A stretch of 54,619 nt of DNA. Origin: a virus. Lineage: Duplodnaviria > Caudoviricetes. The notes below the pieces were generated by a model. That model was given only the letters and a program-made list of their open reading frames with translations, was not told where the DNA came from and searched no databases. This document shows positions 1,328-44,952 of this stretch, one piece after another. How positions within the stretch are numbered: position 1 is the first letter of the stretch; the number at the start of each line of letters is the position of its first letter. The translations under genes and the position numbers were made by a program. The DNA lies in IMG/VR virus record IMGVR_UViG_3300044634_004299, positions 1-54,619 of that record; one strand, written 5' to 3'.

Positions 1328-1788
1328 AAACCCTTGTATTTCCTTGGTAAAAAGTTCTAGTGAAAGGGGATTTGACAGTAAAATATCCAAAAAAAGGGTA
1401 GGAAATGTAGGAATTTCCTAGAAAGGGATATAGTTAAGCTATCTAATTGGTGCTTTTTTTTACTATATCTTTTTTCAGTCACTTTTCACCAGAATTTTTT
1501 TTCCAAAATTTTTTTTACTACTCCTCTTATATAGGGACTTGTTTTTTGGATTCTAGGGATTTACAGGGTTCTTCACTTTCCACTCTAGGAAAAATAAGGG
1601 TTCGTTTTAGGGTGTTTTTTGGAAAAGTCAAAAATCTACTCTAGGGATTTCCAATACTTTACATTTTCAAAAAAGGGTGTTTTTGGAAAAAAGACTGGAA
1701 AATGAACCCAGTAAAAATCAGGGTTCATTTTTTATCTAAAGTGTGGTTTGTGGAAAATGAACCCTTATTTTTCCTAGAGTTGATTTTT
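1328..1788 (+). repeat. long inverted repeat, copy A (partner 44459-44952)
   Basis: reverse complement of 44459-44952 with long identical blocks; internal 22-bp IR 1582-1603/1759-1780; recurring C(T/C)AG(G/T)-N7-AGGGTT motif. Confidence 0.95.
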
Positions 1789-2011
1789 AGAATTTTTAGG
1801 GTATTTTTTTAGGATATTTTTTAGTAAATTTTTTATATTTCCAACAAAATTTTTTAGCATTTTTCATTCCAACAAAATTATTTTTATATTACATAAATGT
1901 ATAAAAATAGTATGCAATAATGTTAAATGGTTTTTTAATACAATGTATAACAATAAAATATAATTTGGTGATTTAAAATCAAACAAAACAATCTTTTAGC
2001 ACATAATTTTC

Positions 2012-2040
2012 TTGATTTTAAATCATTCTTAGGTTATAGT
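2012..2040 (+). promoter_or_regulatory. sigma70-like promoter
   Basis: TTGATT-17-TATAGT upstream of ORF 2075. Confidence 0.5.
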
Positions 2041-2074
2041 TATTTTATCTTAAGTATTTTTTATAGTTTAGAAA

Positions 2075-2482
2075 ATGAGGAAAGTTGATATGAGTAGTCT
2101 AAAGGAACTCACAGTTGGAGACCTTAGAAGTAAGATAGACAAAGACAAAACATATGATGAAGATGGTTTTGTAGTTGAAAAACAAGAAAATAACCATAAC
2201 AATGTTGATTTGGAAGAATTAAAAAAATTATCTAAGATTGATAATTCTAATTATGAGTTAGAAAAATTTAGCGAATCGGTTTTACACATAGAACAAAAAA
2301 AGGTAGAACAATACGAATGCTTGCTATCACTAACAGAATTGTTAATGATAGACTTAAAAGAAGAAATTGATTGTTGTAAAGCTAGTAATTTACCAGTTCC
2401 AAAATCAGTTTATGAAAAAGCTAAGAGATTAGCTGATATATTAACACCAAGACAATTAGGAGGAAATAAAAAAAATGGATAA
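2075..2482 (+). CDS. hypothetical protein
   Basis: 135-aa ORF heading the early operon; no recognised motif. Confidence 0.75.
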   Translation: MRKVDMSSLKELTVGDLRSKIDKDKTYDEDGFVVEKQENNHNNVDLEELKKLSKIDNSNYELEKFSESVLHIEQKKVEQYECLLSLTELLMIDLKEEIDCCKASNLPVPKSVYEKAKRLADILTPRQLGGNKKNG

Positions 2483-3284
2483 AAATAAGTTTAAAGTTGC
2501 TATAAGCAATAATGAGGGATATTACCTTATTAACTTTTGTTATGAAAAATTAACAGAAGAACAAAAAGATACAGCATTTGATAATGCAATAAATAATAAC
2601 AAAGGACACTACCTTTTAGAATATTGTTATGAAAATTTAACAGAAAAACAAAAAGATATAGCATTTGTTAATGCTATAAATAATAATAATGGATGTTACC
2701 TTATTAAATTTTGTTATGACAATTTAACAGAAGAACAAATAAAAATAGCATTTGATAATGCTATAAATAATAATATGGGATATTCCATATTAGGGTATTG
2801 TTATGACAATTTAACAGAAGAACACAAAAATAGAGCATTTGATGATGCTATAAATAATAATATGGGAAATTTACTTTTAAGATTTTATTATGAAAAATTA
2901 ACAGAACAACAAAGAAAGATAGCATTTGATGATGCTATAAATAGTAATGAGGAACATCAACTTTTAAATTATTGTTATGACAATTTAACAGAAGAACAAA
3001 TAAAAATAGCATTTGATAATGCTATAAATAATAACAAAGGACACTACCTTTTAGAATATTGTTATGAAAATTTAACAGAAAAACAAAAAGATAAAGCATT
3101 TGATAATGCTATAAATAATAATTGGGGATATTACCTTTTTAAATTTTGTTATGAAAATTTAACAGAAGAACAAAGAAATAGAGCATTTGATAATGCTATA
3201 AATAATAATATGGGATATTCCATATTAGGGTATTGTTATGACAATTTAACAGAAGAACAAATAAAAATAGCAAAAGACAATTAG
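2475..3284 (+). CDS. 29-aa tandem-repeat protein (9 repeats)
   Basis: 5 aa + 9x29 aa + KDN = 269 aa; consensus FDNAINNNxGxxLLxxCYxNLTEEQxxIA; AGGAGG RBS. Confidence 0.92.
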   Translation: MDKNKFKVAISNNEGYYLINFCYEKLTEEQKDTAFDNAINNNKGHYLLEYCYENLTEKQKDIAFVNAINNNNGCYLIKFCYDNLTEEQIKIAFDNAINNNMGYSILGYCYDNLTEEHKNRAFDDAINNNMGNLLLRFYYEKLTEQQRKIAFDDAINSNEEHQLLNYCYDNLTEEQIKIAFDNAINNNKGHYLLEYCYENLTEKQKDKAFDNAINNNWGYYLFKFCYENLTEEQRNRAFDNAINNNMGYSILGYCYDNLTEEQIKIAKDN

Positions 3285-3297
3285 GAGGAAACAAAAA

Positions 3298-3759
3298 ATG
3301 GATAACATAGAATTTGAAAATGCTATAAATAATAACAAGGGTTATTATTTATTAAAAGATTGTTTTTCAAAATTAACAAAAAAACAAATAAAAATAGCAT
3401 TTGATAATGCTATAAATTATAACGATGGGGTTTATTTATTAGTTCATTGTTATAATAATTTAACAAAAAAACAAATAAAGATAGCTTTTGATAATGCTAT
3501 AAATTATAACGAAGGTCACTATTTATTAGTTCATTGTTATAATAATTTAACAAAAAAACAAATAAAGATAGCATTTGATAATGCTATAAATAATGAAAGA
3601 GGTTGTTATTTATTATGTAATTTTTATGAAAATTCAACAGAAGAACAAAAAAAGATAGCATTTGATAATGCTATAAATAATAACAACGGTAGTTTTTTAT
3701 TAAAATATTTTTATAGCAATTTAACAGAAGAACAAATAAAAATAGCAAAAGATAATTAG
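3298..3759 (+). CDS. 29-aa tandem-repeat protein (5 repeats), paralogue of 2475
   Basis: 5 aa + 5x29 aa + KDN = 153 aa; same consensus; AGGAGG RBS. Confidence 0.92.
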   Translation: MDNIEFENAINNNKGYYLLKDCFSKLTKKQIKIAFDNAINYNDGVYLLVHCYNNLTKKQIKIAFDNAINYNEGHYLLVHCYNNLTKKQIKIAFDNAINNERGCYLLCNFYENSTEEQKKIAFDNAINNNNGSFLLKYFYSNLTEEQIKIAKDN

Positions 3760-3769
3760 GATAAAGAAA

Positions 3770-4087
3770 ATGTATAACAGAATAATAACAAAATTTGATT
3801 TTCAAAATCATGATGAAACTATATTAAATGTTAACAATATTAAGAATTTGAAATTTATAAAAAACAAAGATGATACTTACAATATGTATATAGAAGATGA
3901 TTTGTTTTTAGAAAATGTAAGTTTGGATAACAAAAATCACATAAAAAGTTTCATAAAAACAGGTCACAAATGCGATGGTTTTAAAGGCTCTATGTTTTCT
4001 AACGGTTATGAATATGTAGAAATGTTAATACAAACTAATTTTTTAAAATTAGCGGCTCTTTATTTTATAGATAGGGTTGATGAATAA
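3770..4087 (+). CDS. hypothetical protein, distant paralogue of 4510/4899
   Basis: shared NRII..N..N..KF..YI(E/D)D.F pattern. Confidence 0.75.
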   Translation: MYNRIITKFDFQNHDETILNVNNIKNLKFIKNKDDTYNMYIEDDLFLENVSLDNKNHIKSFIKTGHKCDGFKGSMFSNGYEYVEMLIQTNFLKLAALYFIDRVDE

Positions 4088-4316
4088 AATGTTTAAAGAT
4101 AAATTAGAAAAAATTAAAGAAAGTTTAGGAAATAGTATTTACAACATGTTTGAATGGATATTTAAAAATTTTCCATTCATAGTTATTGTATTGTTTGGTT
4201 CTAGTATTATGATTATTGGTATTCAAGGTTGCGAAGATGAAGAAAAGCGGTTGAAGAAAATAGAAAATAGAATAGAAAATTTAGAAAATAAAAATGATAA
4301 AATTAGGAGAATGTAA
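4077..4316 (+). CDS. small membrane protein with C-terminal coiled coil
   Basis: one hydrophobic segment then KRLKKIENRIENLENK. Confidence 0.75.
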   Translation: MMNKMFKDKLEKIKESLGNSIYNMFEWIFKNFPFIVIVLFGSSIMIIGIQGCEDEEKRLKKIENRIENLENKNDKIRRM

Positions 4317-4317
4317 A

Positions 4318-4506
4318 ATGTTTAAAAAATTATTGAAGAACTTATTTTTATGGTTACTGGTTATACTAACACCTGCTATATTTTTATTTATTGTAGCTTT
4401 TATATGTGTAATTACAGGATATGAAACTCCAGAAGATTTATTAGAAAAGAGATTAAATAAAATAGAAAATAGAATAGAAAAATTAGAAAATAAGAAAGGT
4501 TTATAG
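4318..4506 (+). CDS. small membrane protein, paralogue of 4077
   Basis: start moved to 4318 (AGGAG RBS); TM segment then KRLNKIENRIEKLENK. Confidence 0.75.
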   Translation: MFKKLLKNLFLWLLVILTPAIFLFIVAFICVITGYETPEDLLEKRLNKIENRIEKLENKKGL

Positions 4507-4509
4507 AAA

Positions 4510-4902
4510 ATGTGTGATTATAATTCCTTAATGATATTAGGTTTAGCTTGTTTTATGGTATTAGCTTGGTTGTTTTTATTGGTAGATAATAAGGATAATT
4601 TGGATAAAACGAATAGAATTATAAAAATAAAGTATGGTTTAAAAGTTTCAAAAACACTAATGATAAATACTAGTAATGTGGGAGTTTTTAAATTCATAGA
4701 AAATAATGGTTCTTATGAATTTTACATAGATGATATTTTCTATTTAAGTTGTATAGAAAAAGAAAAAAAACAACAAATAGAATGTTTTTTACAATATGGA
4801 GAAACTAGCGACAGAAACTATACAAAATATGAAACTATTGTTTTGTGGGTTATAAATGAAAAATTAGCAAGTTTAACTTATACAGGTATTATAAAAAAAT
4901 GA
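4510..4902 (+). CDS. TM segment fused to a 4899-family domain
   Basis: N-terminal hydrophobic helix; C-terminal part shares IECFLQYGET..TKYETI..YTGIIKK with 4899. Confidence 0.8.
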   Translation: MCDYNSLMILGLACFMVLAWLFLLVDNKDNLDKTNRIIKIKYGLKVSKTLMINTSNVGVFKFIENNGSYEFYIDDIFYLSCIEKEKKQQIECFLQYGETSDRNYTKYETIVLWVINEKLASLTYTGIIKK

Positions 4903-5198
4903 ATAGAATTATAAAAATAAATTATACAGAAGAGTCAGAGATAATATTTGTAAATACTAGCAATGTTAAATTTTTTAAAATCATAAAAGATACTACTTTT
5001 CATGACCTTTATCAATTTTACATAGATGATGTTTTTAGGATTAGTTTTATATCAGAATCAATAAAAGAAAAAATAGAATGTTTTTTACAATATGGAGAAA
5101 CTAGAGAACATCCTCACACAAAATATGAAACTATTATTTTGAAGATTATAGATAAAAAAATAGCGAGTGTAAGTTATACAGGTATTATAAAAAAATGA
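4899..5198 (+). CDS. hypothetical protein, paralogue of 4510
   Basis: clear similarity to the 4510 C-terminal domain. Confidence 0.8.
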   Translation: MNRIIKINYTEESEIIFVNTSNVKFFKIIKDTTFHDLYQFYIDDVFRISFISESIKEKIECFLQYGETREHPHTKYETIILKIIDKKIASVSYTGIIKK

Positions 5199-5776
5199 TT
5201 AAAATATTAGCAGGGTCACACGGTGTAGGTAAAACCACACAATTACAAAAAATAAAAACACATTTTGAGAAATCAAAAAAAGTAATATTTATAGAGGAAA
5301 TTAATACAGCACTAGCTAATTTAGGGTTAGCAATAGATGGTAAGGGTAAAGACTTTGATTTTGTTATGCAGACACAGTTAATAGCACTTAATCTTGGTAT
5401 TGAGGTTTTAAGCTTATTAAAAGAAAGAAAAGAAAATGTTTATATGGATAGATGTTTCTTAGATACTTTTGTTTATACAATGTATTTCTTCTTTAAACAA
5501 AAAGAAAATAGCGAATCATCTTCTTTGATTTTTAATATTATAAAAAATATTATTGAAGAAAAGATTTATTTATTAAAAAATGGTGTTAATATTTACATCT
5601 TAGAACCAAGCAAAGAGTTTTTTGACAGTAACGGTAGGATGGATAGAGATTCTCAGTTAGCAATACACGGTATTTACTTAGAAACAATAAAAAAAATGGG
5701 TGTTCCACATACAATAATAAAAACAACTAATGAAAATTTTAATAATATATCTAATTTTATAATATGTGATAAATGA
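5195..5776 (+). CDS. P-loop nucleotide-kinase-like protein (NadR/Ttd14 AAA_28 type)
   Basis: N-terminal ILAGSHGVGKTT Walker A, FIEE, YMDRCFLD. Confidence 0.75.
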   Translation: MIKILAGSHGVGKTTQLQKIKTHFEKSKKVIFIEEINTALANLGLAIDGKGKDFDFVMQTQLIALNLGIEVLSLLKERKENVYMDRCFLDTFVYTMYFFFKQKENSESSSLIFNIIKNIIEEKIYLLKNGVNIYILEPSKEFFDSNGRMDRDSQLAIHGIYLETIKKMGVPHTIIKTTNENFNNISNFIICDK

Positions 5777-5849
5777 TTTGTTTTGACAAAAATTGTAAAT
5801 GGTTTTAATATTAGGTATTGATTAATTTTTAATTAGGAGAAAATAGGAA

Positions 5850-6320
5850 ATGGTAAAGGTTGAATTTTGTTTAGTTAGCTTGTTTGAAGAAATTAAAAAA
5901 GTTTGTATAAAAAAATGGGTTGTTGAAAATTTTGAAGAATTAGAAAAATGTAATAGTTTCTTTGAGGCTAAGGAATATTACCAAAATGAATTGATTAATA
6001 TTAAAAATGATATTGTTAGATATTTTGTTTTATATAATAATCTTTGGGAAAATAGTTATGAAAATTTTTTAAAAAGTGAATGTTACACAGGGGTTGTAAC
6101 ATTTTTATCACAGTTTGGTATAGAATTAGATGTGAGAATGAACGATGACGGAACTAATTATGAATATAATACAGAAACTGACGAAGAAAATGTAAAATTT
6201 TTAGAATTATTAAAAACCATTTCAACTGAAATATCTTTAGTGATTTTTCATAATACATCTTTGTTAAAAAAATTAGAAGGAGAAACAGAATCTAATTTGA
6301 AATCTCATATAAAAATATAA
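5850..6320 (+). CDS. hypothetical protein
   Basis: AGGAGAAAATAGGAAATG leader; TTGACA promoter near 5783; YENFLKSECY resembles YDNFVKSCKY of 6336. Confidence 0.8.
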   Translation: MVKVEFCLVSLFEEIKKVCIKKWVVENFEELEKCNSFFEAKEYYQNELINIKNDIVRYFVLYNNLWENSYENFLKSECYTGVVTFLSQFGIELDVRMNDDGTNYEYNTETDEENVKFLELLKTISTEISLVIFHNTSLLKKLEGETESNLKSHIKI

Positions 6321-6335
6321 AGGAGAAAATAGGAA

Positions 6336-6821
6336 ATGGAAAAGTTTTTTGAAGATTTTTTAAAAAATAATATAAAAAAAATGTATAACAAAGAAATTTT
6401 AAGTCGTTTTAAACTTTACATGAGTGAAAAAAGACTAAGTAATATTTTTACAAAAGAAACTTTTATATCATATATTAAAAATATTGATTATCACACAAGA
6501 GTTATACTTTTTGAAGATATAATAAAAGACACAATTAAAGATTTGATTGATAAAGTTGTAAATGAAGAAAAAGGTTATGATAATTTTGTAAAAAGTTGTA
6601 AATATAAACAATATATTAATAATTTATTATCCTATGGATTAGGTTTAACAATACTATATTGGGGAGAACGTGATACACCATTTGGAACAGCGTATGAAAG
6701 AAAATTTATAATAGGGTATCAAAATAAAAATTATGGATTATTATTTAATAAAATTATTAAACAACTTAGTTTTTTGTTTGAAGAAACTAATAACCAAAAA
6801 AAATTAAAGGAGAAAAAATAG
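6336..6821 (+). CDS. hypothetical protein, probable paralogue of 5850
   Basis: identical leader; shared motif. Confidence 0.8.
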   Translation: MEKFFEDFLKNNIKKMYNKEILSRFKLYMSEKRLSNIFTKETFISYIKNIDYHTRVILFEDIIKDTIKDLIDKVVNEEKGYDNFVKSCKYKQYINNLLSYGLGLTILYWGERDTPFGTAYERKFIIGYQNKNYGLLFNKIIKQLSFLFEETNNQKKLKEKK

Positions 6822-6824
6822 GAA

Positions 6825-7487
6825 ATGGAAACAACTAAAATAGTTTATGACGAAAAATATACTAGAGGTATGCAAATTTTAGATTATATAAAAGAAATGA
6901 AATTTGAAAATGTAAGAGTAGACAGTTTATATGGTGCGCCTTTTTACTATGTTAATAACATTAAAAATGTTTGTAAACTTCACGGTTGTATAAGTGTGTC
7001 AATAAAAATAGAAAGTATAATTTTCAAAGATGATACTTTAACACTTATAACAAAGGGTGATATCATACAATTTCACAATGTTAAACTTATGGATGAAGTT
7101 GCCTTAAATGGAAACAAAAAAGTAAAAGTAAAAATAGAACTAGATTTATTAGTATTTGTTGATAAAAGTTTTGAGAATCACGTTATTTCTATAGAATTAC
7201 CTGATGAAAAAAACAATAGGTTTATAGCGGTTTATGATTCCATTGTAAATGTAAGAGAAATAACAAATGTAGAAAAACAACATGAAAGTTTAGTAATTTT
7301 TAGCAGAACAGTAAACGATATTGTTATAACACCTTTTAAGGAGGAGGAAGTTGAAGATACAGGTATGTTTAATTCATACAGTGTGTTTTATACTATAGAA
7401 GATGATAGTTTAATAGATACCTTCTATAATAAAATAATAGAATTTCTAGGTAACAAAGAACAAATATTGAAGATAGGTGATTATTAA
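6825..7487 (+). CDS. hypothetical protein
   Basis: 220-aa ORF with the same leader type. Confidence 0.8.
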   Translation: METTKIVYDEKYTRGMQILDYIKEMKFENVRVDSLYGAPFYYVNNIKNVCKLHGCISVSIKIESIIFKDDTLTLITKGDIIQFHNVKLMDEVALNGNKKVKVKIELDLLVFVDKSFENHVISIELPDEKNNRFIAVYDSIVNVREITNVEKQHESLVIFSRTVNDIVITPFKEEEVEDTGMFNSYSVFYTIEDDSLIDTFYNKIIEFLGNKEQILKIGDY

Positions 7488-7755
7488 AATGATAAATAAA
7501 TTATTCACAAAAATATTAAGATGTAAATATTACTATTACAAGTTTGACGAATCACTATTAGAAGATAGTATTTATGATAAATTGGAAATAGAATATAAAA
7601 ATTTATTTGAAAAAAATAAAGACAAAATGAGTGATTCTGTTAGAAATAAACATCAAGGACTTTTAGATATGGTAGGTTTTGATGAAAAATATATTAAATA
7701 TTTAACTGTTGAGAAAAAACAAATGGATTTTTTTAATACTGTTGACAAAAATTAA
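7477..7755 (+). CDS. stand-alone NAD+-dependent ligase domain Ia (Nlig-Ia)-like protein
   Basis: KYYYYKFDESLLEDSIYDKLE matches the YY...(S/E)D..YD.L motif of LigA domain Ia. Confidence 0.7.
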   Translation: MIIKMINKLFTKILRCKYYYYKFDESLLEDSIYDKLEIEYKNLFEKNKDKMSDSVRNKHQGLLDMVGFDEKYIKYLTVEKKQMDFFNTVDKN

Positions 7756-7775
7756 TAAATAGTTTACAATTTATA

Positions 7776-7858
7776 TTGAATCTAATTATTACCGATACGA
7801 TAATTAGATTTACTCTTTCCTTAAACTCCAAGTAGTTAGTGCCTACTTGGAGTTTTTT
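7776..7858 (+). ncRNA. candidate small RNA 1
   Basis: TTGACA-17-TACAAT (7742-7770), 11-bp hairpin, UACUCUUUCCUU linker, strong terminator 7823-7858; no ORF. Confidence 0.55.
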
Positions 7859-7894
7859 ATTTGACAAAAATTAATAAATAGTTTATTATTTATT

Positions 7895-7990
7895 TAAGTT
7901 GGTGTTATTAGAGTTTTCTTCCTAATTTCGCTAGTAACACTAGCTAACTAAAAAAAAAGAGGGGATTGTGTAAACTTCCCCTCTTTTTTT
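7895..7990 (+). ncRNA. candidate small RNA 2
   Basis: duplicated promoter TTGACA-17-TATTAT (7861-7889); 15-bp stem with three G-U pairs; bidirectional terminator 7950-7990. Confidence 0.55.
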
Positions 7991-8050
7991 ATCATAAAAT
8001 TTTTCTGTTAATCAAGAAAAACTTATACAACCTTACCTAATCCTAGGAAT
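7950..8050 (-). ncRNA. candidate small RNA 3 (convergent)
   Basis: minus-strand TTGACA-17-TACAAT (8085-8057) firing into the bidirectional terminator. Confidence 0.4.
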
Positions 8051-8177
8051 AGTTAAATTGTAGAATAAAAAATTAAAATTGTCAAGATTTGATGTTTTTT
8101 TTGTTTGACAATTGAAAATAATATGTGGTAGTATGATTTATATTATTAACACCAAGGTAATTAGGAGAAATTGGGAA

Positions 8178-8885
8178 ATGAAAAAATTTGTAATAAGTAA
8201 TTCATTAACAGAAAAATACAAAACTAAAAAAGAGATGTTAGAAAAACTCTTTTTTAAAGGTAATGAAATTAATATCATTACGACAATATATAATGAAAAA
8301 GATATTTTAAATAAAAATGATAATTTATTTTTAAAGAAAAAACCTTTAAAAAACGAGGATGGTAAAATAACAATTGGTTTATCAAACACCGATAACAAAA
8401 ACCGTTCTTTAGAATTTAATAGAGAATGTAACTGTTACACTTATAAATTAAATGTCAATCTAAAAAAAATCAAAACAATTGAATTAGAAAATTTATCAAT
8501 AAATTCAAAATTTAATCCACAGAATCATATGGATGATAGTATAAGTGATATAGAAAGAAGTTACAATGAAAATAAAGATAAATTTTATATGAAAACCAAA
8601 GGTGGTGAAGAAATTGAATTTAAAGGTGATATTTTAATAAATGATTATGAAAATAAAACAGATGATTACAGTTTACAGCAATATCCAAATGGGTGGAATA
8701 ATTTTAGCACAAGTTATTCTTTCATATGCAGGAGTTGTAATCTTTGGTATAGTTTTAGTATGAACAACCATTGTAGATGTGGTGATAAATTTGAAGATAA
8801 TATTTTAAGAGTTAAGTATGATGAAGTTAAATCAAAAAGTTACGAAAACGAAAGATATTTTTTAACAAAATATAAAATAAATTAA
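8178..8885 (+). CDS. hypothetical protein with possible Zn ribbon
   Basis: start moved to 8178 (AGGAGAAATTGGGAAATG); CRSC..HCRC near the C-terminus. Confidence 0.8.
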   Translation: MKKFVISNSLTEKYKTKKEMLEKLFFKGNEINIITTIYNEKDILNKNDNLFLKKKPLKNEDGKITIGLSNTDNKNRSLEFNRECNCYTYKLNVNLKKIKTIELENLSINSKFNPQNHMDDSISDIERSYNENKDKFYMKTKGGEEIEFKGDILINDYENKTDDYSLQQYPNGWNNFSTSYSFICRSCNLWYSFSMNNHCRCGDKFEDNILRVKYDEVKSKSYENERYFLTKYKIN

Positions 8886-10213: not shown

Positions 10214-10255
10214 ATTCCACCCAATTTAACTAAAAAAGATTGGGTGGAATTTTTT
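10214..10255 (+). terminator. terminator, part of direct repeat unit 1
   Basis: ATTCCACCCAAT/ATTGGGTGGAAT stem plus T run; near copy at 10895-10930. Confidence 0.7.
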
Positions 10256-10281
10256 AATAAATTTAAATAGGATAAATATAA

Positions 10282-10749
10282 ATGGAAAAATATTATAATA
10301 TAAAAGATGAATTACAAACTACTTTAACTAGTATTCTACTTAGTCAATTTGAAGAAAGTAGGGGGTTTGATATAGAACTACCTGAACCACCTTATCATCC
10401 AGTTTATTATCATAGTGAAAAAATATACAAAACAAATCATTATTATTTAGTTAGAGCTTTCAGGTTAATAAATATACCTGAAAAAGATAATTATATAAAA
10501 TTAACAGTTAAAACACCTTTTGTTTTTTCTTCATTAGATGATGAAGAAAAAGAAATATTATTAAATTATATTTGTGATAACCTGCAATTAGATTTAAATA
10601 AATATGATAGTGAAGTTAGTATATCTAATTTCGTAACAAAATGTATTATTCATTTAATAGATGAGTTAAAAAAAATTTTTGAAGAAAAACTAAAAAAATG
10701 GGAAAATAAAATCTTAAACCAAGAAACAAATTTTGAAATAAACATGTAG
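10282..10749 (+). CDS. hypothetical protein
   Basis: 155-aa ORF with RBS. Confidence 0.75.
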   Translation: MEKYYNIKDELQTTLTSILLSQFEESRGFDIELPEPPYHPVYYHSEKIYKTNHYYLVRAFRLINIPEKDNYIKLTVKTPFVFSSLDDEEKEILLNYICDNLQLDLNKYDSEVSISNFVTKCIIHLIDELKKIFEEKLKKWENKILNQETNFEINM

Positions 10750-10894: not shown

Positions 10895-10930
10895 CCACCC
10901 AACTTCACCAAAAATGATTGGGTGGAATTT
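10895..10930 (+). terminator. terminator, part of direct repeat unit 2
   Basis: CCACCCAA/TTGGGTGG stem. Confidence 0.6.
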
Positions 10931-10958
10931 ATTAATAATTTTAAATAGGAGATGAACG

Positions 10959-11274
10959 ATGAGAAATATATTTTTAATGATAGCTGTATTTTTTTGTTTT
11001 ATCAACTATAAAAATAATATTTACTATAACTAATATTATAGATGGTATATATTGGATATGTGGATACAATAAAGTAGAATTACCCAGTGGAACATTCCAA
11101 AGATATCCAAGATACATTTACCTAACAAATAATGAGTTGAAAATATATAAAAAACAAAAATTAGAAGAAGAGGAAAGGAAAAAGAAAACACCACCTCCTC
11201 CACCAAGAAACTTAAATGCAACTATAAGTAAAAAAATTATAATAACAGATATATATAATATAAAAGGAGAATAA
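10959..11274 (+). pseudogene. frameshifted 104-aa membrane-anchored protein with poly-Pro (not in ORF track)
   Basis: AGGAG RBS and ATG at 10959; frame stops at 11031-11033 but the +1 frame is open to 11274; T7 run at 10989-10995. Confidence 0.7.
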
Positions 11275-35632: not shown

Positions 35633-37119
35633 ATACTTTTAACAAAATCATTATACATATCTATTGTTAGTTGTCTACCTTTTAGAAGTTCAAGTAATCT
35701 TTCTTCAAAGGTTTTCTTATAGATTAAATCGTAGATAAAAACTTCTTTGTGAGGGGAACCTATCCTAGTTAACCTACCCAACAACTGTATTCTTTTAGTT
35801 ATACTTGATTCTGTTTGATATATTATTAAATTATTACAAATTTTAAAATTATCTAAACCAACACCAACAGAATCAATTGTTGCTACACATATATCGTTTT
35901 CTTGCATTAAGGAATCATCACCAAGAAACCTAAAAACTTTGAAATCTGTTTCTGTTCTTATTAAATCATAAACCCTATTAGCTGATTCAACATTATAACA
36001 AGTAACTAAACATTTACCAGTTGTGAAATCTATATTATAAAGAATATCAAACATTTCTTTATCTTTATTTAAAACATCGTTAGATATTCTTTTAGCAACC
36101 CTATTTTCTTTAGAAATTTTAAAATCATTCAACAATTCTTTTATGGAGTATGTTTTTATATCAAAATATATACAACCCGCAATGGCTCTAAGTAACATTA
36201 TCTTTTCTTGAGTATTAACTACTCTTTGTGTATCAGCTATCTCCAAAACCTTATCTTTTTTGAGATTTTTTTGTATCTTTACAATACAATCATCTAATTC
36301 AATGTATATTTGTTTTTCATTTACTTTAATATCATTATCTACACCTACAACATCGTTAAAGAATGCTCTATTTGATAATTCATACAAATTATCATAGAAA
36401 ATAGACTTCATAAAATCTGTTTTAAATTCATTACTGAAACTGGTAAAATTTCCTTTATCATATCTAACTATTTGTGTTTTAAGGAAGTATGATTTAAACT
36501 CATATAAACTAAGTTCGCCACTCTTTTTTCTACCTACAGTTTCTCCTAAGTGGTCTTTAAAAAAAATACCATTTAGGTAACAAGCTATACCAATACAATT
36601 TATAGTATTAGCAATTGTTGTTGCTGATGAGAAAACACAATTACCCTTTAATCTACCTAAAACACCCATTGTTCCTTTAGTTTCTGTTTTTTTTGTTTTA
36701 GAATTAAAAGAAGTTGTTTTTTTACCTACTAAGTTATTATAAATCATAGATTTATCATTGTTTAAATATTTATGGAATTCATCAAAAATGACAAAACAAT
36801 TTTCCAATTTATCAATAACAAAATTTAAACCATATTTTGATAAACTATTAAAACTCATAACAAATATGTTGCTTTTTTCCCTATCTATATCAAAAACATC
36901 TTTTATAATATTAACATCTTCTAAAACATCTTTTAATTGTTTGATTATATTTTTAATATTAATAGCTAAGGTTATAAATATAATGTTTTTGTAACCTTGT
37001 TCTATTGCTAGATTTACAGTTCCATAAGTTTTTCCTGTTCCAGTATCCCAATACAAAAATGTTTTCTTTTCTATATTGGTTTGGTGTGGTAATAGTTTAA
37101 AAGATTCTTTGAATTTCAT
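35629..37119 (-). CDS. SNF2-like SF2 helicase
   Basis: LLPHQ, DTGTGKT, DEFH, SAT, GVGLD, QLLGRLTRIG; start moved to 37119 (GGAG RBS). Confidence 0.9.
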   Translation of the reverse strand: MKFKESFKLLPHQTNIEKKTFLYWDTGTGKTYGTVNLAIEQGYKNIIFITLAINIKNIIKQLKDVLEDVNIIKDVFDIDREKSNIFVMSFNSLSKYGLNFVIDKLENCFVIFDEFHKYLNNDKSMIYNNLVGKKTTSFNSKTKKTETKGTMGVLGRLKGNCVFSSATTIANTINCIGIACYLNGIFFKDHLGETVGRKKSGELSLYEFKSYFLKTQIVRYDKGNFTSFSNEFKTDFMKSIFYDNLYELSNRAFFNDVVGVDNDIKVNEKQIYIELDDCIVKIQKNLKKDKVLEIADTQRVVNTQEKIMLLRAIAGCIYFDIKTYSIKELLNDFKISKENRVAKRISNDVLNKDKEMFDILYNIDFTTGKCLVTCYNVESANRVYDLIRTETDFKVFRFLGDDSLMQENDICVATIDSVGVGLDNFKICNNLIIYQTESSITKRIQLLGRLTRIGSPHKEVFIYDLIYKKTFEERLLELLKGRQLTIDMYNDFVKSI

Positions 37120-37137
37120 AATTTTTCTCCAAATAAA

Positions 37138-37168
37138 AAGCACCAATATTTTATTTATATTGGTGCTT
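37138..37168. terminator. intergenic hairpin
   Basis: AAGCACCAATAT/ATATTGGTGCTT. Confidence 0.55.
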
Positions 37169-37656: not shown

Positions 37657-37977
37657 TTAACTCTTTGTTGAGTCAATTTTTAAAATTTCTTTGTAATTGT
37701 TTTGTATTATTTGCAAAAACAACTCATCTCTCTTTTTTTGTATTTGTTCTAAAAATTCAATATTTATTTCTTTAGAACAAATTGTATTTTTTTCTTTTTT
37801 GTCTTCTTTTTCTTTATATATATCACTTTGTGATATATACTTTTCATTGTATTTAAATTTAACACAATGATATTCTTTTTTGTAAAAAATTTTAATTACT
37901 ATTAGAGTTATAATATTACTTAAACTAGTTATTATAACTAAAAATAAAATAAACTTAAGAATTTGTTTCATTTTCAA
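37657..37977 (-). CDS. single-TM membrane protein, possibly related to 37177
   Basis: TM helix; YHCV...ISQSDIYK resembles VYCV...ITQTNLYK. Confidence 0.7.
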   Translation of the reverse strand: MKMKQILKFILFLVIITSLSNIITLIVIKIFYKKEYHCVKFKYNEKYISQSDIYKEKEDKKEKNTICSKEINIEFLEQIQKKRDELFLQIIQNNYKEILKIDSTKS

Positions 37978-39619
37978 CCTCTATTTTAAATGTTTTTTTA
38001 TGTATATTTATTATATTTTCTAGAACAGAATTATAAAATATATACTTTTCTTTTAATGAACCCCTATTCATTCTACCTAAAGTTTGCATAATGAACTTTA
38101 CAAATGTTTTTTTCTTTAGAGTTTCTAACGATAAGAATTTTCTATCAAAACTTCTTATTGTTGTTTGTATATATAACATTTTATTTATTTCAAGTAAAGA
38201 AAAATCGTTGTATACAATGTTATTTGGTGTATACGGTGTTATCAATTCTTCTTTTTTAAAGTCAAGAAAGTAGAAAAACTCAAACTCTGTAAAATCATTG
38301 CTACCAATTAATTTTGGAGAAGTTAAATAAAGTATCTCGTGATTCGGTGATAAACTACTACCTAATTCCTTTAAAACCTTATTCATTATAGTTTTTGTTG
38401 GTGTTATAAATAAGGTTTTGTGTTCTCTAAATTTATTAAAATCACTATAACAGCTAATTTTAAAATCTTTTATTTCATCAACATTTACATAATTGTATTC
38501 AATATTCTTCTTCATTTTATTTGAAGTAAAGAATTTATTTATTTCGTTTTCTTCAAAATCACCAAATATAGTAGCAGATAAACCAATTATTTTAGACTGA
38601 TTCGCTACTAAAACTTCATATGCTGGAAATGTTATATCTAGATAACCACCAGCTACAACTTCTTTTTCAACATCATCTACAGGAATTTTCTTAGCTAAAT
38701 CGTATTTGTAATGGAAAATATAACCGTTTATATCTAGTTCTTTTGGAAGTAAATAACAAAAATTATCATTACCTTTATTATATTTATAATCATTTATAGT
38801 TGTTATTTTTAATATGGTAACATTGCTATTTATTTCAGCTAAACTATCAAAACTATAACCCCAAACTTTAATATTACTTATATGTAAAAGGTTAGTAAAA
38901 GATTCTTTATTTCTAACTTCAACAAAACAAGAACTGTCTACTGTGTAAAATTCACCGTTTACTTGAAATATTTTATTTTCGTATTTATCTTTAAAATCCT
39001 GTTCCAATACTTCGTCGTATTCTTTATCAATCAAAACTTTCAATAACCTATCATTAGTTATAGGTTTTTTAAACATTATATCATTATTAATAAAGAAAGT
39101 TGATGCTAATATACCTAAGTTAGAGTCTAACTCGTCTATGAAGATATTATCACAGCTATTTATAAAATCTAAATAACAACTAACAACTCTTGATTTATCA
39201 ACATACGAATTCAAAACAAATCCAAGATTATATTGTGTTATTAACACTATATCTGCTATCTCAATAGGTGTGCTTAGATTTATCAAACCTAGATAGTAAT
39301 TAGCTAGTTTTTCTTCTATATTCTCTAAATCTTCTTCTTTATAAAGATTACCAATAGATAATTTTTTACAAACAGAACTAGGGATGTGAATTTTATGTTC
39401 TTTGAGAAATGGAGTTAATTTTATATCGTATAAATCAAAATCGTATCCAAAAAGTTTAACTAACTCCTTTAAAACATCATCAACATTAGATAAATTAGGA
39501 ACAATTATCATGTGTTTTTGGTTCTTATTTTCTTTTATATATTTACACATTGAATAAGTTTTACCCTCTCCTGTGTGTAAATTATTAATTACTGCTTTTA
39601 TTTTATTAAAATCAATCAT
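37955..39619 (-). CDS. SF2 helicase/ATPase paralogous to the replicase C-terminus
   Basis: TGEGKTYSMCK, IFIDELDS, LSAT, LIGSNDF, QTLGRMNRG. Confidence 0.85.
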   Translation of the reverse strand: MIDFNKIKAVINNLHTGEGKTYSMCKYIKENKNQKHMIIVPNLSNVDDVLKELVKLFGYDFDLYDIKLTPFLKEHKIHIPSSVCKKLSIGNLYKEEDLENIEEKLANYYLGLINLSTPIEIADIVLITQYNLGFVLNSYVDKSRVVSCYLDFINSCDNIFIDELDSNLGILASTFFINNDIMFKKPITNDRLLKVLIDKEYDEVLEQDFKDKYENKIFQVNGEFYTVDSSCFVEVRNKESFTNLLHISNIKVWGYSFDSLAEINSNVTILKITTINDYKYNKGNDNFCYLLPKELDINGYIFHYKYDLAKKIPVDDVEKEVVAGGYLDITFPAYEVLVANQSKIIGLSATIFGDFEENEINKFFTSNKMKKNIEYNYVNVDEIKDFKISCYSDFNKFREHKTLFITPTKTIMNKVLKELGSSLSPNHEILYLTSPKLIGSNDFTEFEFFYFLDFKKEELITPYTPNNIVYNDFSLLEINKMLYIQTTIRSFDRKFLSLETLKKKTFVKFIMQTLGRMNRGSLKEKYIFYNSVLENIINIHKKTFKIEVENETNS

Positions 39620-39620
39620 T

Positions 39621-42724: not shown

Positions 42725-43148
42725 ATTTTTCTACTAATCTAACTAAACTATATTTTTGTATTAACTTCTCTAGGTTTAATTTACTTTTTAAGAAGTAAAA
42801 CATTTCTGTTATGTTCTTATAACCCTCTTTAACCATAAGTTGCTCTAGGTTAAAGATTTTGTAGTTATTTTCATAATATTTCATCATTATAAAAAAAGGT
42901 AAAGTGTTTATAAGATTGTTCCTACCCCTGTATCTCATGTTATATTTTTCTTGGTTTAAAATTTTTTTTATATCAAGAAAAACAAAACCGAAATCTTCAT
43001 CTAATGTTTCAAGTTTTATGTCTTTGTAATTAGTGAAGTGTAAACAATCACTCCTTTTAAAGAAGTGATTGTTTGCTTGTATATTAGCTCTAAAAAACTC
43101 AATTGTATCTTTGTTTATTAGAGGTTTTATCCTTTTTATTAACTTCAT
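42699..43148 (-). CDS. hypothetical protein
   Basis: operonic ORF. Confidence 0.7.
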   Translation of the reverse strand: MKLIKRIKPLINKDTIEFFRANIQANNHFFKRSDCLHFTNYKDIKLETLDEDFGFVFLDIKKILNQEKYNMRYRGRNNLINTLPFFIMMKYYENNYKIFNLEQLMVKEGYKNITEMFYFLKSKLNLEKLIQKYSLVRLVEKYGKEEVFQ

Positions 43149-43150
43149 TT

Positions 43151-44164
43151 TTAAAAACCACTTGTTTTTTCTATCTCGTTTTCTTCTGCTTCAGTTAATT
43201 TTGGTTTTGTTGAAGTTAACTCTAAGTTATAAAATTTCTCCTTAAAAGTATACTTATCTTCACCCTTGTAAGAAACCATTTCCATAACATTTTGTGTAAC
43301 TTCTTCATAATTTTTTTCATAATCAGGAATCATGAATAAAACATCATTAATGTTATTTTTACCAACAGCAATATAATAGCTGTTTATTTCATAATCTTTT
43401 GCTACTTTGTGTTTACCAAAGAAGTTATTGTTATTATGAATGTAAACCATTGTTAACCATTCGTAATATATTGCTTGGTAAATATTTTTTGTTGAACCAA
43501 AACTATAATGATTACTATAATCATTAGTTGTAGCACAAGTTTTTATATCACCTATTAAAATTTCTACGACTTCGTCTTGTTCGTTTTTAATTAGGTTTAC
43601 TATATCTAATTTACCTTTTAATGTAAATTTATCATTTTTCATTATTATTTGAAATTCTGTTAATTTGTTTTTTAAAGAATCACCAATTGTTTTTTTATAA
43701 AGTTGATGGTTTTTTACAGAATCACTTAATCTTTTAACTAACTCAAATTCTTCTGTTGTTAAAAAAGTATTACCATTGAAGATAATTTCTTTTAAAACAG
43801 GTTCCATTTCTTTCATTTTTTTATTGTAATAATGGGTAGTATTCCCATCTGGTATTATTTCTTTAATGATAACATCATCAAAAAAAGATTTAGGTTCTAA
43901 TAACATTTTATGAACCGCTGTTCCAATTCTTAAACTATCACTAGGAATAGTTATTTTATCCAAATCTTTTTCTCTAAAAACATTTATATTATTTTTTAGT
44001 TTTTCATGGTTTTTTGGATTAAAACTAGTGTTTTCCCACCAAGTTTTTTTACTAAAACTACTTGATACAAAATTTTTATATTCTGTTCCAGAAGTAGCAT
44101 TTTTAATATTGTGGTATTCTAAATCTTTTAGAATTGTTTTTTTTATTTTTAAATCTTTAACCAT
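43151..44164 (-). CDS. RecE/exonuclease VIII-like PD-(D/E)xK nuclease
   Basis: YH, IGTAVHKMLLEP, E, LKGKLD, DIKT, YQAIYY. Confidence 0.85.
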   Translation of the reverse strand: MVKDLKIKKTILKDLEYHNIKNATSGTEYKNFVSSSFSKKTWWENTSFNPKNHEKLKNNINVFREKDLDKITIPSDSLRIGTAVHKMLLEPKSFFDDVIIKEIIPDGNTTHYYNKKMKEMEPVLKEIIFNGNTFLTTEEFELVKRLSDSVKNHQLYKKTIGDSLKNKLTEFQIIMKNDKFTLKGKLDIVNLIKNEQDEVVEILIGDIKTCATTNDYSNHYSFGSTKNIYQAIYYEWLTMVYIHNNNNFFGKHKVAKDYEINSYYIAVGKNNINDVLFMIPDYEKNYEEVTQNVMEMVSYKGEDKYTFKEKFYNLELTSTKPKLTEAEENEIEKTSGF

Positions 44165-44234
44165 TTTTTTCTCCTTATTTCAAAATTAAATGGTTAAAGG
44201 AATGTTAACATATGTTTTATAAAAATTCAATAGT

Positions 44235-44340
44235 AAAAAAAAAATAGGTTGTTAATAGAAAAATTAACAACCTATAGTTAAGTAGAGTAAAAAACATACG
44301 ATTTATATTAAATTTCTTTAATAAAACAATGTTAATAATA
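44235..44340 (-). ncRNA. candidate small RNA / terminated leader
   Basis: minus-strand TTGACT-17-TAGTAT (44374-44346); terminator stem 44244-44275 with T run; UUUACUCU before the terminator as in small RNA 1. Confidence 0.35.
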
Positions 44341-44458
44341 CAAATATACTAAAACTTTTTTTATTTAAAGTCAAGTGGAAAAATAATAAAAAATATTTTT
44401 TTTAAAAAATATAAATTTTTAAAAAAATCAACTCTAGGAAAAATAAGGGTTTTTATCA

Positions 44459-44952
44459 AAAAATCAACTCTAGGAAAAATAAGGGTTCATTTTCCACAAA
44501 CCACACTTTAGATAAAAAATGAACCCAGTAAAACACAGGGTTCATTTTCCAGTCTTTTTTCCAAAAACACACTTTTTTAAAATGTAAAGTATTGGAAATC
44601 CCTAGAGTAGATTTTCAATTTTTTTCAAAAAGTTTGGAAAACGAACCCTTATTTTTCCTAGAGTGGAAAGTGAAGAACCCTGTAAATCCCTAGAATCCAA
44701 AAAACAAGTCCCTATATAAGAGGAGTAGTAAAAAAATTTTGGAAAAAAATTCTGGTAAAAAATGACTGAAAAAATGACTAAAAAAATTCTAAGAAAAGTT
44801 ACTAAAAAAAGATATAGTAAAAAAAAGCACCAATTAGATAGCTTAACTATATCCCTTTCTAGGAAATTCCTACATTTCCTACCCTTTTTCTGGATATTTT
44901 ACTGTCTAATCACCTTTCACTAGAACTGTTTGCTAAGGAAATCCAAGGGTTT
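44459..44952 (-). repeat. long inverted repeat, copy B
   Basis: reverse complement of 1328-1788 with a ~33-bp insertion; extra tandem copy of the terminal ~30 bp at 44422-44451. Confidence 0.95.

Follow-up and report, generated by a model that had tools for sequence, protein, structure and literature searches.

Two non-coding inverted repeats of about half a kilobase bound a 42.7-kb segment in the genome of an uncultured lake-water phage, and in one close relative the surroundings of this segment are joined the opposite way round. The same genome-flipping layout is known from a recent description of freshwater cyanophages. The window analysed is the whole record of 54,619 nucleotides, and the segment occupies positions 1792–44455 between two inward-reading operons. 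The reading favoured here, to which about an even chance is given, is that the repeats are two copies of a binding array with an origin-like or regulatory function, which would also be substrates for homologous inversion.

Copy A (positions 1318–1791, plus strand, 474 bp) and copy B (44456–44962, minus strand, 507 bp) are the only two full copies returned by a search of the whole record (E 7.6e-178). An earlier sequence-only reading had proposed such an inverted pair, and the pair is real, although the copies measure 474 and 507 bp and the identical block described as about 95 bp is one of 99 bp. The copies are reverse complements of each other and ~92% identical once one 36-bp indel is set aside; in the pairwise alignment 436 of 510 columns are identical and 39 are gap columns, giving 92.6% identity outside gaps. 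An extra tandem 36-bp unit is located within copy B at about 44770–44805. The repeat search divides the pair into three collinear inverted blocks (1318–1500 with 44780–44962, 1497–1691 with 44555–44749, and 1665–1791 with 44456–44582), and the exact runs shared by the copies are 79 bp (1391–1469), 99 bp (1510–1608), 37, 33 and 68 bp (1721–1788) long. As had been claimed, both copies are non-coding and richer in GC than the genome (30.8% in copy A and 29.2% in copy B versus 24.6%); the GC content of copy A is reached by 2.9% of the 474-bp windows of the genome and that of copy B by 7.8%. The repeats contain no conserved ORF, the longest one in copy A (65 aa) being broken in copy B.

The two-copy structure is also present in independent sequencing runs. 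The 24 public runs found all consist of k=31 contigs, which are unable to link across the repeat. In two lake-water runs (X1 and X2) the contigs end at 1391 and 1788, the first and last 31-mers common to both copies, and because they break exactly there the two-copy repeat is taken as real. The depth of the repeat core relative to its flanks is 1.54–1.59 in X2 and 1.69–2.43 in X1, where 1.47 is predicted for two copies, and in X2 the outer flank of copy B (R) runs into the repeat at 1318.

Both repeats are built around short motifs. The motif CTAGG-N7-AGGGTT, with up to one mismatch, has nine matches in the record (0.23 expected; none of 100 shuffles reaches nine), eight of which lie in or abut the repeats on both strands, in agreement with the earlier description of a motif repeated in both orientations. 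Copy A contains two iterons on the plus strand (1553–1602), CTAGGGATTTACAGGGTT at 1553–1570 and CTAGGAAAAATAAGGGTT at 1585–1602, with mirror images on the minus strand of copy B at 44676–44693 and 44644–44661. A terminal inverted iteron is positioned at the inner end of copy A (1760–1777, minus; mirror image in copy B at 44470–44487, plus) and a degenerate one with one mismatch at its outer end (1329–1346, minus). Just inside the inner end of copy B, another extra tandem 36-bp unit (44416–44451, plus) carries one more iteron, and its part 44423–44451 is 100% complementary to 1760–1788. The inner half of the repeat is a ~200-bp quasi-palindrome (1579–1783), the 30-nt arms of which (1579–1608 and 1754–1783) are 93% complementary; the predicted single-stranded DNA fold of 1540–1800 has −44.1 kcal/mol, compared with −23.6 for shuffles (z = −6.1). 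It includes an 11-bp-stem hairpin, AAAATGAACCC-N11-GGGTTCATTTT (1699–1731); the loop of this hairpin is turned round in copy B with respect to the repeat register, 44516–44548 being a direct and not an inverted match (94%). The related motif CTAGnGAAAGGG forms an array (1149–1368; units at 1161, 1236, 1291 and 1357, all on the plus strand) that begins in the outer flank L and continues within copy A, and all five matches in the record fall in this array or in copy B, versus 0.25 expected.

The inner flanks of the repeats are unique and AT-rich. That of copy A (1792–2074, plus strand, 16.6% GC) contains promoter-like sites and precedes the plus-strand operon starting at 2075, and that of copy B (44165–44455, minus strand, 15.8% GC) holds TTGACT-17-TAGTAT and a terminator-like hairpin with a 13-bp stem upstream of the exonuclease operon. 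From the inner ends it is 284 bp to the ATG at 2075 and 292 bp to that at 44164, in line with the ~290 bp given before. The first gene of the operon adjoining copy B (43151–44164, minus) encodes the RecE-like nuclease (exonuclease VIII) that the sequence-only reading had placed there (phrog_412, E 3.9e-11). The 'resolvase' that it also placed beside copy B is not upheld, this ORF having no family match and a fold prediction that is unusable. The outer end of copy B lies 78 bp from the ATG of the replicase gene (45040–49401, plus, 1453 aa), with a promoter-like GTGACA-17-TATACT in between, as expected from the claim that this copy abuts the replicase promoter. The N-terminal part of the replicase is PolB-like, and the remainder has a Walker-A motif and Cys/His zinc-finger-like invariant residues. 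Copy B is located between this gene and the RecE-like exonuclease operon.

In the favoured reading the repeats would be duplicated cis-acting modules, one heading each of the two operons that read into the 42.7-kb segment from its borders, and each module would comprise 18–21-bp binding motifs in both orientations, the ~200-bp quasi-palindrome and then a stretch of 16% GC. The arrays would bind a phage-encoded DNA-binding protein; no protein that would bind the motif was found, and the ORFs adjoining the repeats are orphans. Their likeliest role would be that of modules acting like origins or controlling forks, on the model of SPP1 oriL/oriR, with transcriptional control arrays a close second. 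A function as twin origins is plausible from the iterons in both orientations, the quasi-palindrome and the 16% GC flanks, and also from the neighbourhood, which has the replicase gene and a DnaA-box palindrome. Since the modules lie in opposite directions and have exact blocks of 68–99 bp in common, homologous recombination between them would flip the intervening segment. The RecE-like exonuclease module of the phage, or else host functions, would drive this recombination, and the lineage would then exist as two genome isomers, as in the Anabaena cyanophages.

It is possible, with lower confidence, that the duplicated arrays serve transcriptional control, as enhancer- or operator-type sites for a phage regulator, and co-regulate the two inward operons and the replicase operon, inversion being incidental and rare. 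The 284–292 bp between the inner ends and the operon starts and the 78 bp between copy B and the replicase ATG would suit such a role, and the CTAGnGAAAGGG units in L and copy A are all oriented toward the operon. Other regulatory cassettes are duplicated in this genome as well: an 80-nt inverted repeat covers both start codons of the divergent genes 13818(−) and 14152(+), and intergenic cassettes are repeated at 10217 and 10895. The best sigma-70-like sites, however, lie in the unique flanks, outside the duplicated part, which is therefore not the promoters themselves, and the promoter-like counts are at shuffle level (22 versus 17.1 and 6 versus 5.7 in the two regions, no excess). Moreover, at least eight sites over ~470 bp together with a 200-bp quasi-palindrome exceed the complexity of a typical operator.

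Inversion of the segment, as the favoured reading would have it, is seen in L009, a ~94%-identical 8.3-kb short-read metagenome contig. It proceeds from the outer flank L of copy A through a repeat into the exonuclease operon, which in the record is on the side of copy B; L009 152–1532 corresponds to record 406–1788 (plus) and L009 1235–8343 to record 44753–37636 (minus). Relative to flank L, this order puts the 42.7-kb segment in the opposite orientation and marks L009 as the inverted isomer. Its identity to the record is 93.6% in L, 96.0% in the repeat and 96.3% in the exonuclease gene, and since both sides are ~94% identical to the record, the same strain accounts for both. The inner flank of copy B has 0 mismatches with L009 in 291 nt. 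Among 509 aligned repeat columns, L009 groups with copy A in 63, with copy B in 12 and apart from both in 8, while the 99-bp block, identical in A and B, differs from L009 at four sites; this mosaic reveals patchy exchange between A and B. As the copies are only ~92% identical and differ by indels, exchange is too infrequent to homogenise them. The 2-micron plasmid, plastid and HSV-1 genomes, too, have inverted repeats, which divide them into two invertible arms. The repeat copies of these genomes are virtually identical and the 2-micron ones carry the FRT site for the FLP recombinase, whereas here the copies are ~92% identical and a recombinase was not found; the comparison with such homogenised repeats argues against very frequent homologous flip-flop. 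The earlier proposal of invertible arms thus gains from the opposite orientation of L009 and loses, as far as very frequent flip-flop is concerned, from the divergence of the copies.

The opposite orientation rests on this one contig, and a reading given about the same chance as the transcriptional control arrays is that the orientation is fixed, the join in L009 being a chimera via the shared 68-bp block or one old inversion fixed in another strain, and isomerisation no longer going on. The switch from A-like repeat to B-type flank falls within the 68-bp block identical in both copies, where a chimeric assembly would also switch; in addition, the record contig passes both repeats unbroken, and the ~8% divergence of A and B indicates infrequent exchange. 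This is countered by the divergence from the record, which is alike on both sides of the join, by the mosaic site patterns and by the shared blocks, which at up to 99 bp are below the usual read length and would normally be resolved if a large-k assembler was used. The same architecture is described as bidirectional within single cyanophage cultures.

Phage DNA bounded by inverted repeats and found in two orientations is also known from the Gin/Cin/Hin-type segments of Mu and P1, which are 3–4 kb long, have 26–34-bp crossover sites and a serine invertase gene alongside, unlike this phage, where the six-frame search for the Resolvase family had no match. The earlier statement that there is no site-specific recombinase agrees with the searches performed: six-frame PF00239 and PF00589 gave no match at E≤1, with the positive controls detected, and PHROGs and Pfam yielded no serine or tyrosine recombinase. 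Neither a transposase nor an integrase was found by PHROGs and the same six-frame searches.

The sequence-only reading had viewed the repeats as twin origins or recombination sites placed asymmetrically to a theta origin on a circle, with inversion producing double rolling-circle concatemers for packaging, which is improbable. A perfect palindrome with 23-nt arms (120–188) contains two consensus DnaA boxes (TTATCCACA at 123, plus, and 177, minus); it lies 1.13 kb outside copy A and, if the record ends abut, ~9.8 kb from copy B, and this spacing favours the scheme, as does the RecE-like exonuclease beside copy B. Double rolling-circle replication has been linked to the frequent inversion of the 2-micron repeats and is proposed for plastid and HSV (PMC3147054). 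The scheme presupposes that the genome is circular and that its origin has been mapped, however, and the record shows neither: it is labelled 'linear', with no terminal overlap and no terminal repeat of at least 10 nt, its CheckV completeness of 54% means that it may be incomplete, and GC skew tracks the direction of the genes, without an origin signal of its own. The DnaA-box palindrome region (64–255) is replaced in runs X3 and X5 by sequence absent from the record, and an essential origin is not expected to be dispensable. The repeats are also not homogenised, and an FLP-like recombinase was not found.

It is very improbable that the 42.7-kb segment or the ~11-kb PolB arc is a linear protein-primed replicon or a transposon-like element, integrated or joined in silico, with the repeats as its terminal inverted repeats, for despite the PolB-like gene and the iteron exactly at each inner end, reminiscent of the subterminal binding-site arrays typical of transposon ends, the sequence continues past both repeat ends in the record, L009 and the X1 and X2 contigs, core depth fits two copies per genome and not four, and neither a transposase or integrase nor a target-site duplication at the boundaries is seen.

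The nearest known counterpart is the pair of 400–700-nt inverted repeats bounding a ~30-kb invertible segment in the Anabaena cyanophages A-1(L) and N-1. Such a segment is described for the Anabaena/Nostoc cyanophages A-1(L), N-1, Elbi, A-Lf14, A-Alj1 and A-Hlh1, where the isomers were confirmed by PCR, Sanger sequencing and read mapping (bioRxiv 10.64898/2026.02.14.705889). Like those cyanophages, the present phage is a freshwater tailed phage with contractile-tail-type genes, and has a 0.4–0.7-kb non-coding repeat pair in long intergenic gaps, bounding a segment of tens of kb that includes replication genes, with opposite orientations among close relatives and no assigned dedicated recombinase. 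The A-1(L) repeats (20503–21219 and 53130–53845; 717 bp, 98.5% identical) hold 17 of the 23 genome copies of TTGTAACG and an 18% GC core, and those of N-1 (19656–20378 and 49276–49999; 724 bp, 98.3% identical) have GTCTTGTA and AAGACGCT four times each, with none in the other 48.5 kb. From these computations, the A-1(L) and N-1 repeats resemble the present ones in being dense in short motifs that are specific to the lineage and occur in both orientations about an AT-rich core, and in having inner ends that face inward-reading operons. The motif itself differs, the copies are ~92% identical here versus 98.3–98.5% in A-1(L) and N-1, and the segment takes up 42.7 of the 54.6 kb of the record versus the reported ~30 kb of 65–68 kb; coexisting isomers are documented by PCR and reads in the cyanophages and by one related contig here. 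No kinship with the cyanophages is detectable, and of 60 record ORFs only a C5 methyltransferase matches A-1(L), at 25.7% identity.

Bacillus phage SPP1 has two origins made of iterons and an AT-rich stretch and a restart pathway with an exonuclease, an annealase and a resolvase, and its second site has been proposed to act by fork stalling, which would trigger recombination-dependent concatemer synthesis (PMC6316719; PMC3485210). As in the oriL/oriR described there, this phage has two dispersed modules with repeated (here putative) initiator-binding sites and an AT-rich stretch, one of them beside or within replication genes, and a 5'-3' exonuclease recombination module nearby. The SPP1 repeats are short boxes, unlike the 470-bp duplicated block, and these sources do not describe a role for them in genome inversion; the initiator of SPP1 has been identified as gp38, whereas in this phage neither an initiator nor homology to gp38 was found.

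In the Burkholderia jumbo phage Matilda, segments flanked by inverted repeats are reported both ways round, even within single plaques, which is attributed to homologous 'flip-flop' recombination (bioRxiv 10.64898/2026.10.21.760668). The Matilda repeats, given as 1.5 and 18 kb, cap a 267-kb linear genome, whereas those of the lake-water phage are internal, 0.5 kb long and non-coding.

The window contains a genuine pair of inverted repeats, copy A (1318-1791, 474 bp) and copy B (44456-44962, 507 bp), which are reverse complements of each other and enclose a 42.7-kb segment (1792-44455). The copies are 92.6% identical outside 39 gap columns and have exact runs of 79, 99, 37, 33 and 68 bp in common; their differences include a 36-bp indel and a 22-bp divergent block at 1609-1630. 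The pair had been described in a sequence-only reading of this genome, and that description holds. The repeats are GC-rich for the genome (30.8% in copy A and 29.2% in copy B vs 24.6% overall) and non-coding, with no conserved ORF in either copy, and they carry a repeated motif. CTAGG-N7-AGGGTT, with at most one mismatch, occurs nine times in the window, and eight of these sites, on both strands, are inside the repeats or directly next to them, where 0.23 would be expected; the iteron motif of the repeats is CTCTAGGAAAAATAAGGGTTC. A related unit, CTAGnGAAAGGG, is found five times in the window, in every case in the flank outside copy A (flank L) and copy A or in copy B.

Each copy has as its inner half a quasi-palindrome of ~200 bp, with 30-nt arms at 1579-1608 and 1754-1783 that are 93% complementary. 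Folded as single-stranded DNA, 1540-1800 reaches -44.1 kcal/mol, whereas shuffles reach -23.6 (z = -6.1), and a consensus fold of three repeat sequences gave no evidence of a structured RNA in the repeats (covariation term +0.37). As the earlier reading had noted, the inner ends are close to operon starts: each is followed by a unique stretch of 284-292 bp and then by an operon reading into the 42.7-kb segment. These inner flanks (1792-2074 and 44165-44455) are AT-rich, with 16.6% and 15.8% GC against 24.6% in the genome. The outer end of copy B is 78 bp from the ATG of the replicase. GC skew in the window follows gene orientation alone.

Parts of window 1-6000 are contained in 24 lake and freshwater metagenome runs, all as Logan k=31 contigs, and four of these public runs, X1 and X2 among them, were compared with window 1-4000; one of the runs may be the source sample. 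The X1 pieces cover 306-1420, 1391-1788 and 1759-2658, those of X2 cover 35-1420, 1391-1788 and 1759-2529, and the breaks therefore fall exactly at the first and last 31-mers common to the two copies. The depth of the core piece relative to the flanks is 1.54-1.59 in X2 and 1.69-2.43 in X1, compared with 1.47 predicted for two copies diverged as in the window. One X2 contig passes from the outer flank of copy B into the repeat at 1318, and one X3 contig spans 1319-2215 at a depth of 6. Given the breaks, the depth and the X2 join, the two copies of the repeat are not the product of a faulty assembly of the window. Since k=31 contigs break at the shared blocks and cannot join the flanks, they are silent on orientation.

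The orientation of the segment is addressed by L009, a metagenome contig of 8343 bp, which was retrieved by alignment of the exonuclease and four homologues and is the sole relative with DNA that was reached. Its positions 152-1532 correspond to window 406-1788 on the + strand (94.3% identity), while positions 1235-8343 correspond to window 44753 down to 37636 (94.1%). The order in L009 is flank L, a repeat, the inner flank of copy B and the exonuclease operon, and thus the 42.7-kb segment lies opposite to its orientation in the window relative to flank L. The earlier proposal of invertible arms is supported in this part, with the opposite arrangement found in the one relative reached (~94% identical), a single case that is possibly an assembly artefact. 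Divergence is similar on both sides of the L009 join, the identity to the window being 93.6% in flank L, 96.0% in the repeat (vs copy A) and 96.3% in the exonuclease gene.

Among the 509 aligned repeat columns of copy A, copy B and L009, 426 are invariant, 63 pair L009 with copy A (35 of them being the B-only insert), 12, mostly in the outer part, pair it with copy B, and 8 separate it from both. The 99-bp block, the same in both window copies, differs in L009 at 4 sites. This mosaic of repeat sites indicates occasional exchange between the copies. The switch in L009 from an A-like repeat to a B-type flank falls within the last 68-bp identical block, a position which fits a crossover and equally a chimeric assembly, and this is the main caveat. 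The segment may accordingly have a fixed orientation, with the L009 join being artefactual or a one-off; the similar divergence on its two sides and the mixed repeat sites speak against that explanation.

Large invertible segments bounded by inverted repeats have been described in phages in literature that, as far as it was found, is very recent (two 2026 preprints). The Anabaena cyanophages A-1(L), N-1, Elbi and new isolates have a ~30-kb segment between inverted repeats of 400-700 nt, which is found in opposite orientations among isolates, and each culture holds both orientations according to PCR, Sanger sequencing and read mapping; the available portion of that preprint assigns no recombinase, gives recombination-prone replication as an alternative and, for the repeats, mentions only “short conserved motifs” (bioRxiv 10.64898/2026.02.14.705889). 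In the jumbo phage Matilda, terminal segments flanked by inverted repeats are described to flip-flop (bioRxiv 10.64898/2026.10.21.760668), and one of the two preprints cites an earlier report for phage Elbi. The phage of the window likewise has a non-coding repeat pair of about 400-700 nt (474/507 bp) bounding a segment of tens of kb, here 42.7 kb, which is opposite in one relative. There is no detectable kinship with A-1(L), as in a tblastn search with 60 window ORFs only the C5 methyltransferase gave a match (25.7% identity, E 2e-16). This phage shares the architecture of the cyanophages and not their clade.

In A-1(L) the inverted repeats are at 20503-21219 and 53130-53845 (717 bp, 98.5%), the second being 3130-3845 of the Nostoc phage A1 sequence L011, and both lie within intergenic gaps of more than 1 kb. 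The motif TTGTAACG has 17 of its 23 genome copies inside these repeats (8.4 vs 0.09 per kb), the motifs surround a core of 18% GC, and the operons faced by the inner ends, one for the baseplate and one for primase/helicase/polymerase, are both inward-reading. The repeats of N-1 are at 19656-20378 and 49276-49999 (724 bp, 98.3%), and in them GTCTTGTA and AAGACGCT occur 4 times each vs 0 in the other 48.5 kb examined. The architecture of A-1(L) and N-1 therefore matches this phage in detail. The arrays are of the TTGTAACG type in A1 and of the AAGACGC/GTCTTGT type in N1, and they are dense, in both orientations and with an AT-rich core.

In all three lineages (this phage, A-1(L) and N-1) the repeats on either side of the segment are non-coding and form arrays of short, lineage-specific motifs in both orientations; they adjoin or surround an AT-rich stretch and head inward-reading operons. 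The repeats are not arbitrary duplications. The motif arrays in three lineages point to a functional module (an origin, a fork barrier or a regulator), and it is the duplication of such a module that appears to make inversion possible. The architecture is now extended to an unrelated, uncultured lake phage lineage of 24.6% GC; this new member and the motif-array observation are what is new here. Concrete motifs are now supplied for binding and origin assays, and as a practical warning, an assembly of such a phage from short reads settles arbitrarily on one isomer.

The closest studied functional analogue is SPP1, which has two origins, each with initiator-binding repeats and an AT-rich element. 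According to the proposed scheme, forks stall at initiator bound to the second of them, and replication is restarted by an exonuclease, an annealase and a Holliday-junction resolvase in the form of concatemer synthesis (PMC6316719; PMC3485210). As in iteron-type origins such as SPP1 oriL/oriR and P4 ori/crr, a clustered specific motif is present here (8 of 9 and 5 of 5 matches) and an AT-rich stretch adjoins (16.6%/15.8% GC). The replicase gene is adjacent to copy B. Unlike the systems of the Gin/Cin/Hin serine invertases and the FLP/Cre-type tyrosine recombinases, this phage has no recombinase gene that could be found. Six-frame searches of the window with PF00239 (Resolvase) and PF00589 (Phage_integrase) gave no match at E<=1, in agreement with the sequence-only reading, while positive controls gave matches in 13 and 14 of 14 genomes; no recombinase was recognized by PHROGs (60 ORFs) or Pfam (38 ORFs) either, in a record that may be incomplete.

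The window, a whole IMG/VR virus record of 54,619 bases, encodes a tailed phage, with a large terminase (11863-13287, - strand), a portal (14152-15462, + strand, starting at 14152), a protease/major-head fusion (15946-17997), a baseplate wedge (32598-33905), two SF2-type helicases (35629-37146 and 37955-39619, - strand) and a C5 cytosine methyltransferase (52135-53205, - strand); its GC content is 24.6%, and no tRNAs or Rfam families were found in it. Next to copy B, the RecE-like nuclease proposed earlier is supported as an exonuclease VIII (43151-44164, - strand; phrog_412, E 3.9e-11), while the proposed resolvase is not: the 149-aa ORF has no family match, and its single-sequence AlphaFold model is unusable (pLDDT 36.7). 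Neither this “resolvase” nor the putative annealase beside copy B has a Pfam or PHROG match.

The replicase of 1453 aa (45040-49401, + strand) is PolB-like in its N-terminal ~500 residues (phrog_1252, E 7.7e-30), which are 23-32% identical to phage “DNA polymerase B region” genes by tblastn. Only four homologues were found among 5.8 billion clusters, with 99, 56, 55 and 29% identity, and columns invariant in all five sequences include GxGKT (852-856), DE (981-982), a Cys/His cluster (775-804) and DxD...H (615-656). These columns suggest a PolB-like domain fused to putative primase-like and NTPase domains, an arrangement that no Pfam or PDB sequence match supports. A profile search of the replicase against PDB returned only P-loop noise (E 0.4-0.8), and language-model leads for the non-polymerase part, all below high confidence, were to SF2 helicase, Prim-Pol and Herpes_ori_bp families.

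The lineage appears isolated, judged by its sparse homologues: very few were in the databases for the replication and recombination proteins searched. The exonuclease likewise has four among protein clusters, a 323-aa ORF beside copy B has two matches in 1.84 billion representatives and none in the atlas, and the 149-aa ORF near copy B has homologues only at 98-99% identity. The protein database contains further related contigs of 8.8, 11.1, 12.9 and 47.9 kb. None of 50,697 phage records matches the repeat, viral contigs do not contain the exact iteron, searches of viral contigs with the replicase alone, the exonuclease alignment and the replicase alignment gave no related loci, and a search of genome contigs gave none either.

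The preferred reading, to which an even chance is given, is that the repeats are duplicated protein-binding modules and that homologous recombination inverted the 42.7-kb segment. For the putative modules an origin-like or fork-control role is the first choice, and transcriptional control comes second. By the presumed pathway, recombination of the homologous repeats would have inverted the 42.7-kb segment in this lineage, at a frequency that is likewise presumed, and there would therefore be two isomers in nature. The repeats might instead be pure regulatory arrays. The AT-rich flanks fit promoter regions and equally the unwinding region of an origin and do not discriminate between the two; sigma-70-like promoter counts are only at shuffle level.

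The earlier note had interpreted the repeats as twin origins or recombination sites which, if the genome is circular, lie asymmetrically around the DnaA-box palindrome, a geometry that would give double rolling-circle concatemers. Against frequent flip-flop or this double rolling-circle model, the copies are ~92% identical and not homogenised, and X3 and X5 have sequence absent from the window in place of the region around the DnaA-box palindrome (64-255). The circular form and the origin that the model needs are hypothetical: the record is classed as “linear”, its completeness by CheckV is 54%, and no terminal direct repeat >=10 nt was found in the window. In the 2-micron plasmid, plastid and HSV genomes the repeats are kept (near) identical by frequent exchange, in contrast to the 92.6% identity here, with an indel of 36 bp and a divergent block of 22 bp. 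It is also conceivable, if rather improbable, that unrelated freshwater phages, this AT-rich lake phage and the Anabaena cyanophages, converged on an iteron-rich origin module that is duplicated in inverted form and whose copies pair for a purpose. With no site-specific recombinase involved, the pairing would flip most of the genome during replication and so switch theta replication to recombination-dependent or double rolling-circle concatemers; genome isomerism would then be the visible by-product of a replication mechanism. If the repeats were the termini of a linear protein-primed replicon or a transposon, they would be at physical ends, but contigs extend past both repeat ends in the window, L009 and X1/X2 and the depth fits two copies.

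A transposon with terminal inverted repeats was rejected, as there is no transposase and no target-site duplication and the flanks continue past the repeats, and two linear molecules sharing a repeat were rejected on depth and inconsistent termini.

Within the repeats, a hairpin with an 11-bp stem, AAAATGAACCC-N11-GGGTTCATTTT, at 1699-1731 and 44516-44548, has its loop flipped between the copies, the copy B loop being inverted relative to the repeat register (1710-1720 in copy A); this looks like an ordinary hairpin-loop flip. L009 carries the A-type loop despite its B-type flank. The stretch between copy B and the exonuclease (44165-44455) has 0 mismatches in 291 nt to L009, with neighbours 94-96% identical. 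It holds TTGACT-17-TAGTAT and then a terminator-like hairpin with a 13-bp stem (44275-44244), ~80 nt before the ATG, has an RNA fold z of -4.6, and may be a leader, attenuator or small RNA.

The region 64-287 (core 120-188) contains a perfect palindrome with 23-nt arms and two consensus DnaA boxes, inside an inverted repeat with 68-nt arms (90%). Contigs from X3 and X5 depart from the window sequence at 64 and return to it at 255, with 30-mers that the window lacks, and other strains therefore carry different DNA at 64-255; the window record and L009 both end in the region of this palindrome. At 833-900 (L009 580-650), runs of 8, 6 and 5 G (GGGGGGGG, GGGGGGTGGGAGGGGG) in non-coding DNA of ~21% GC are kept in L009; they may be a G-quadruplex or serve as a signal for packaging or regulation.

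In 2394-3864 a unit of 87 bp (29 codons) is repeated in tandem at least 14 times, with 63-83% identity, and the array crosses the ORFs 2475-3284 and 3298-3759, the second and third genes of the copy-A operon, for which Pfam gave only sub-threshold repeat-like matches. A second inverted repeat (13813-13892/14078-14157, 80-nt arms, 88% complementary) covers the ribosome-binding site and the opening codons of each of two divergent genes, one starting at 13818 (-) and the other, the portal gene, at 14152 (+), which therefore share one mirrored 5' region. Repeated intergenic cassettes at 10217-10294 and 10895-10972, 79% identical, consist of a terminator-like CCACCCAAT...ATTGGGTGG and a ribosome-binding site, and two small paralogous genes, 82-86% identical, stand in tandem at 4713-4909 and 5009-5205.
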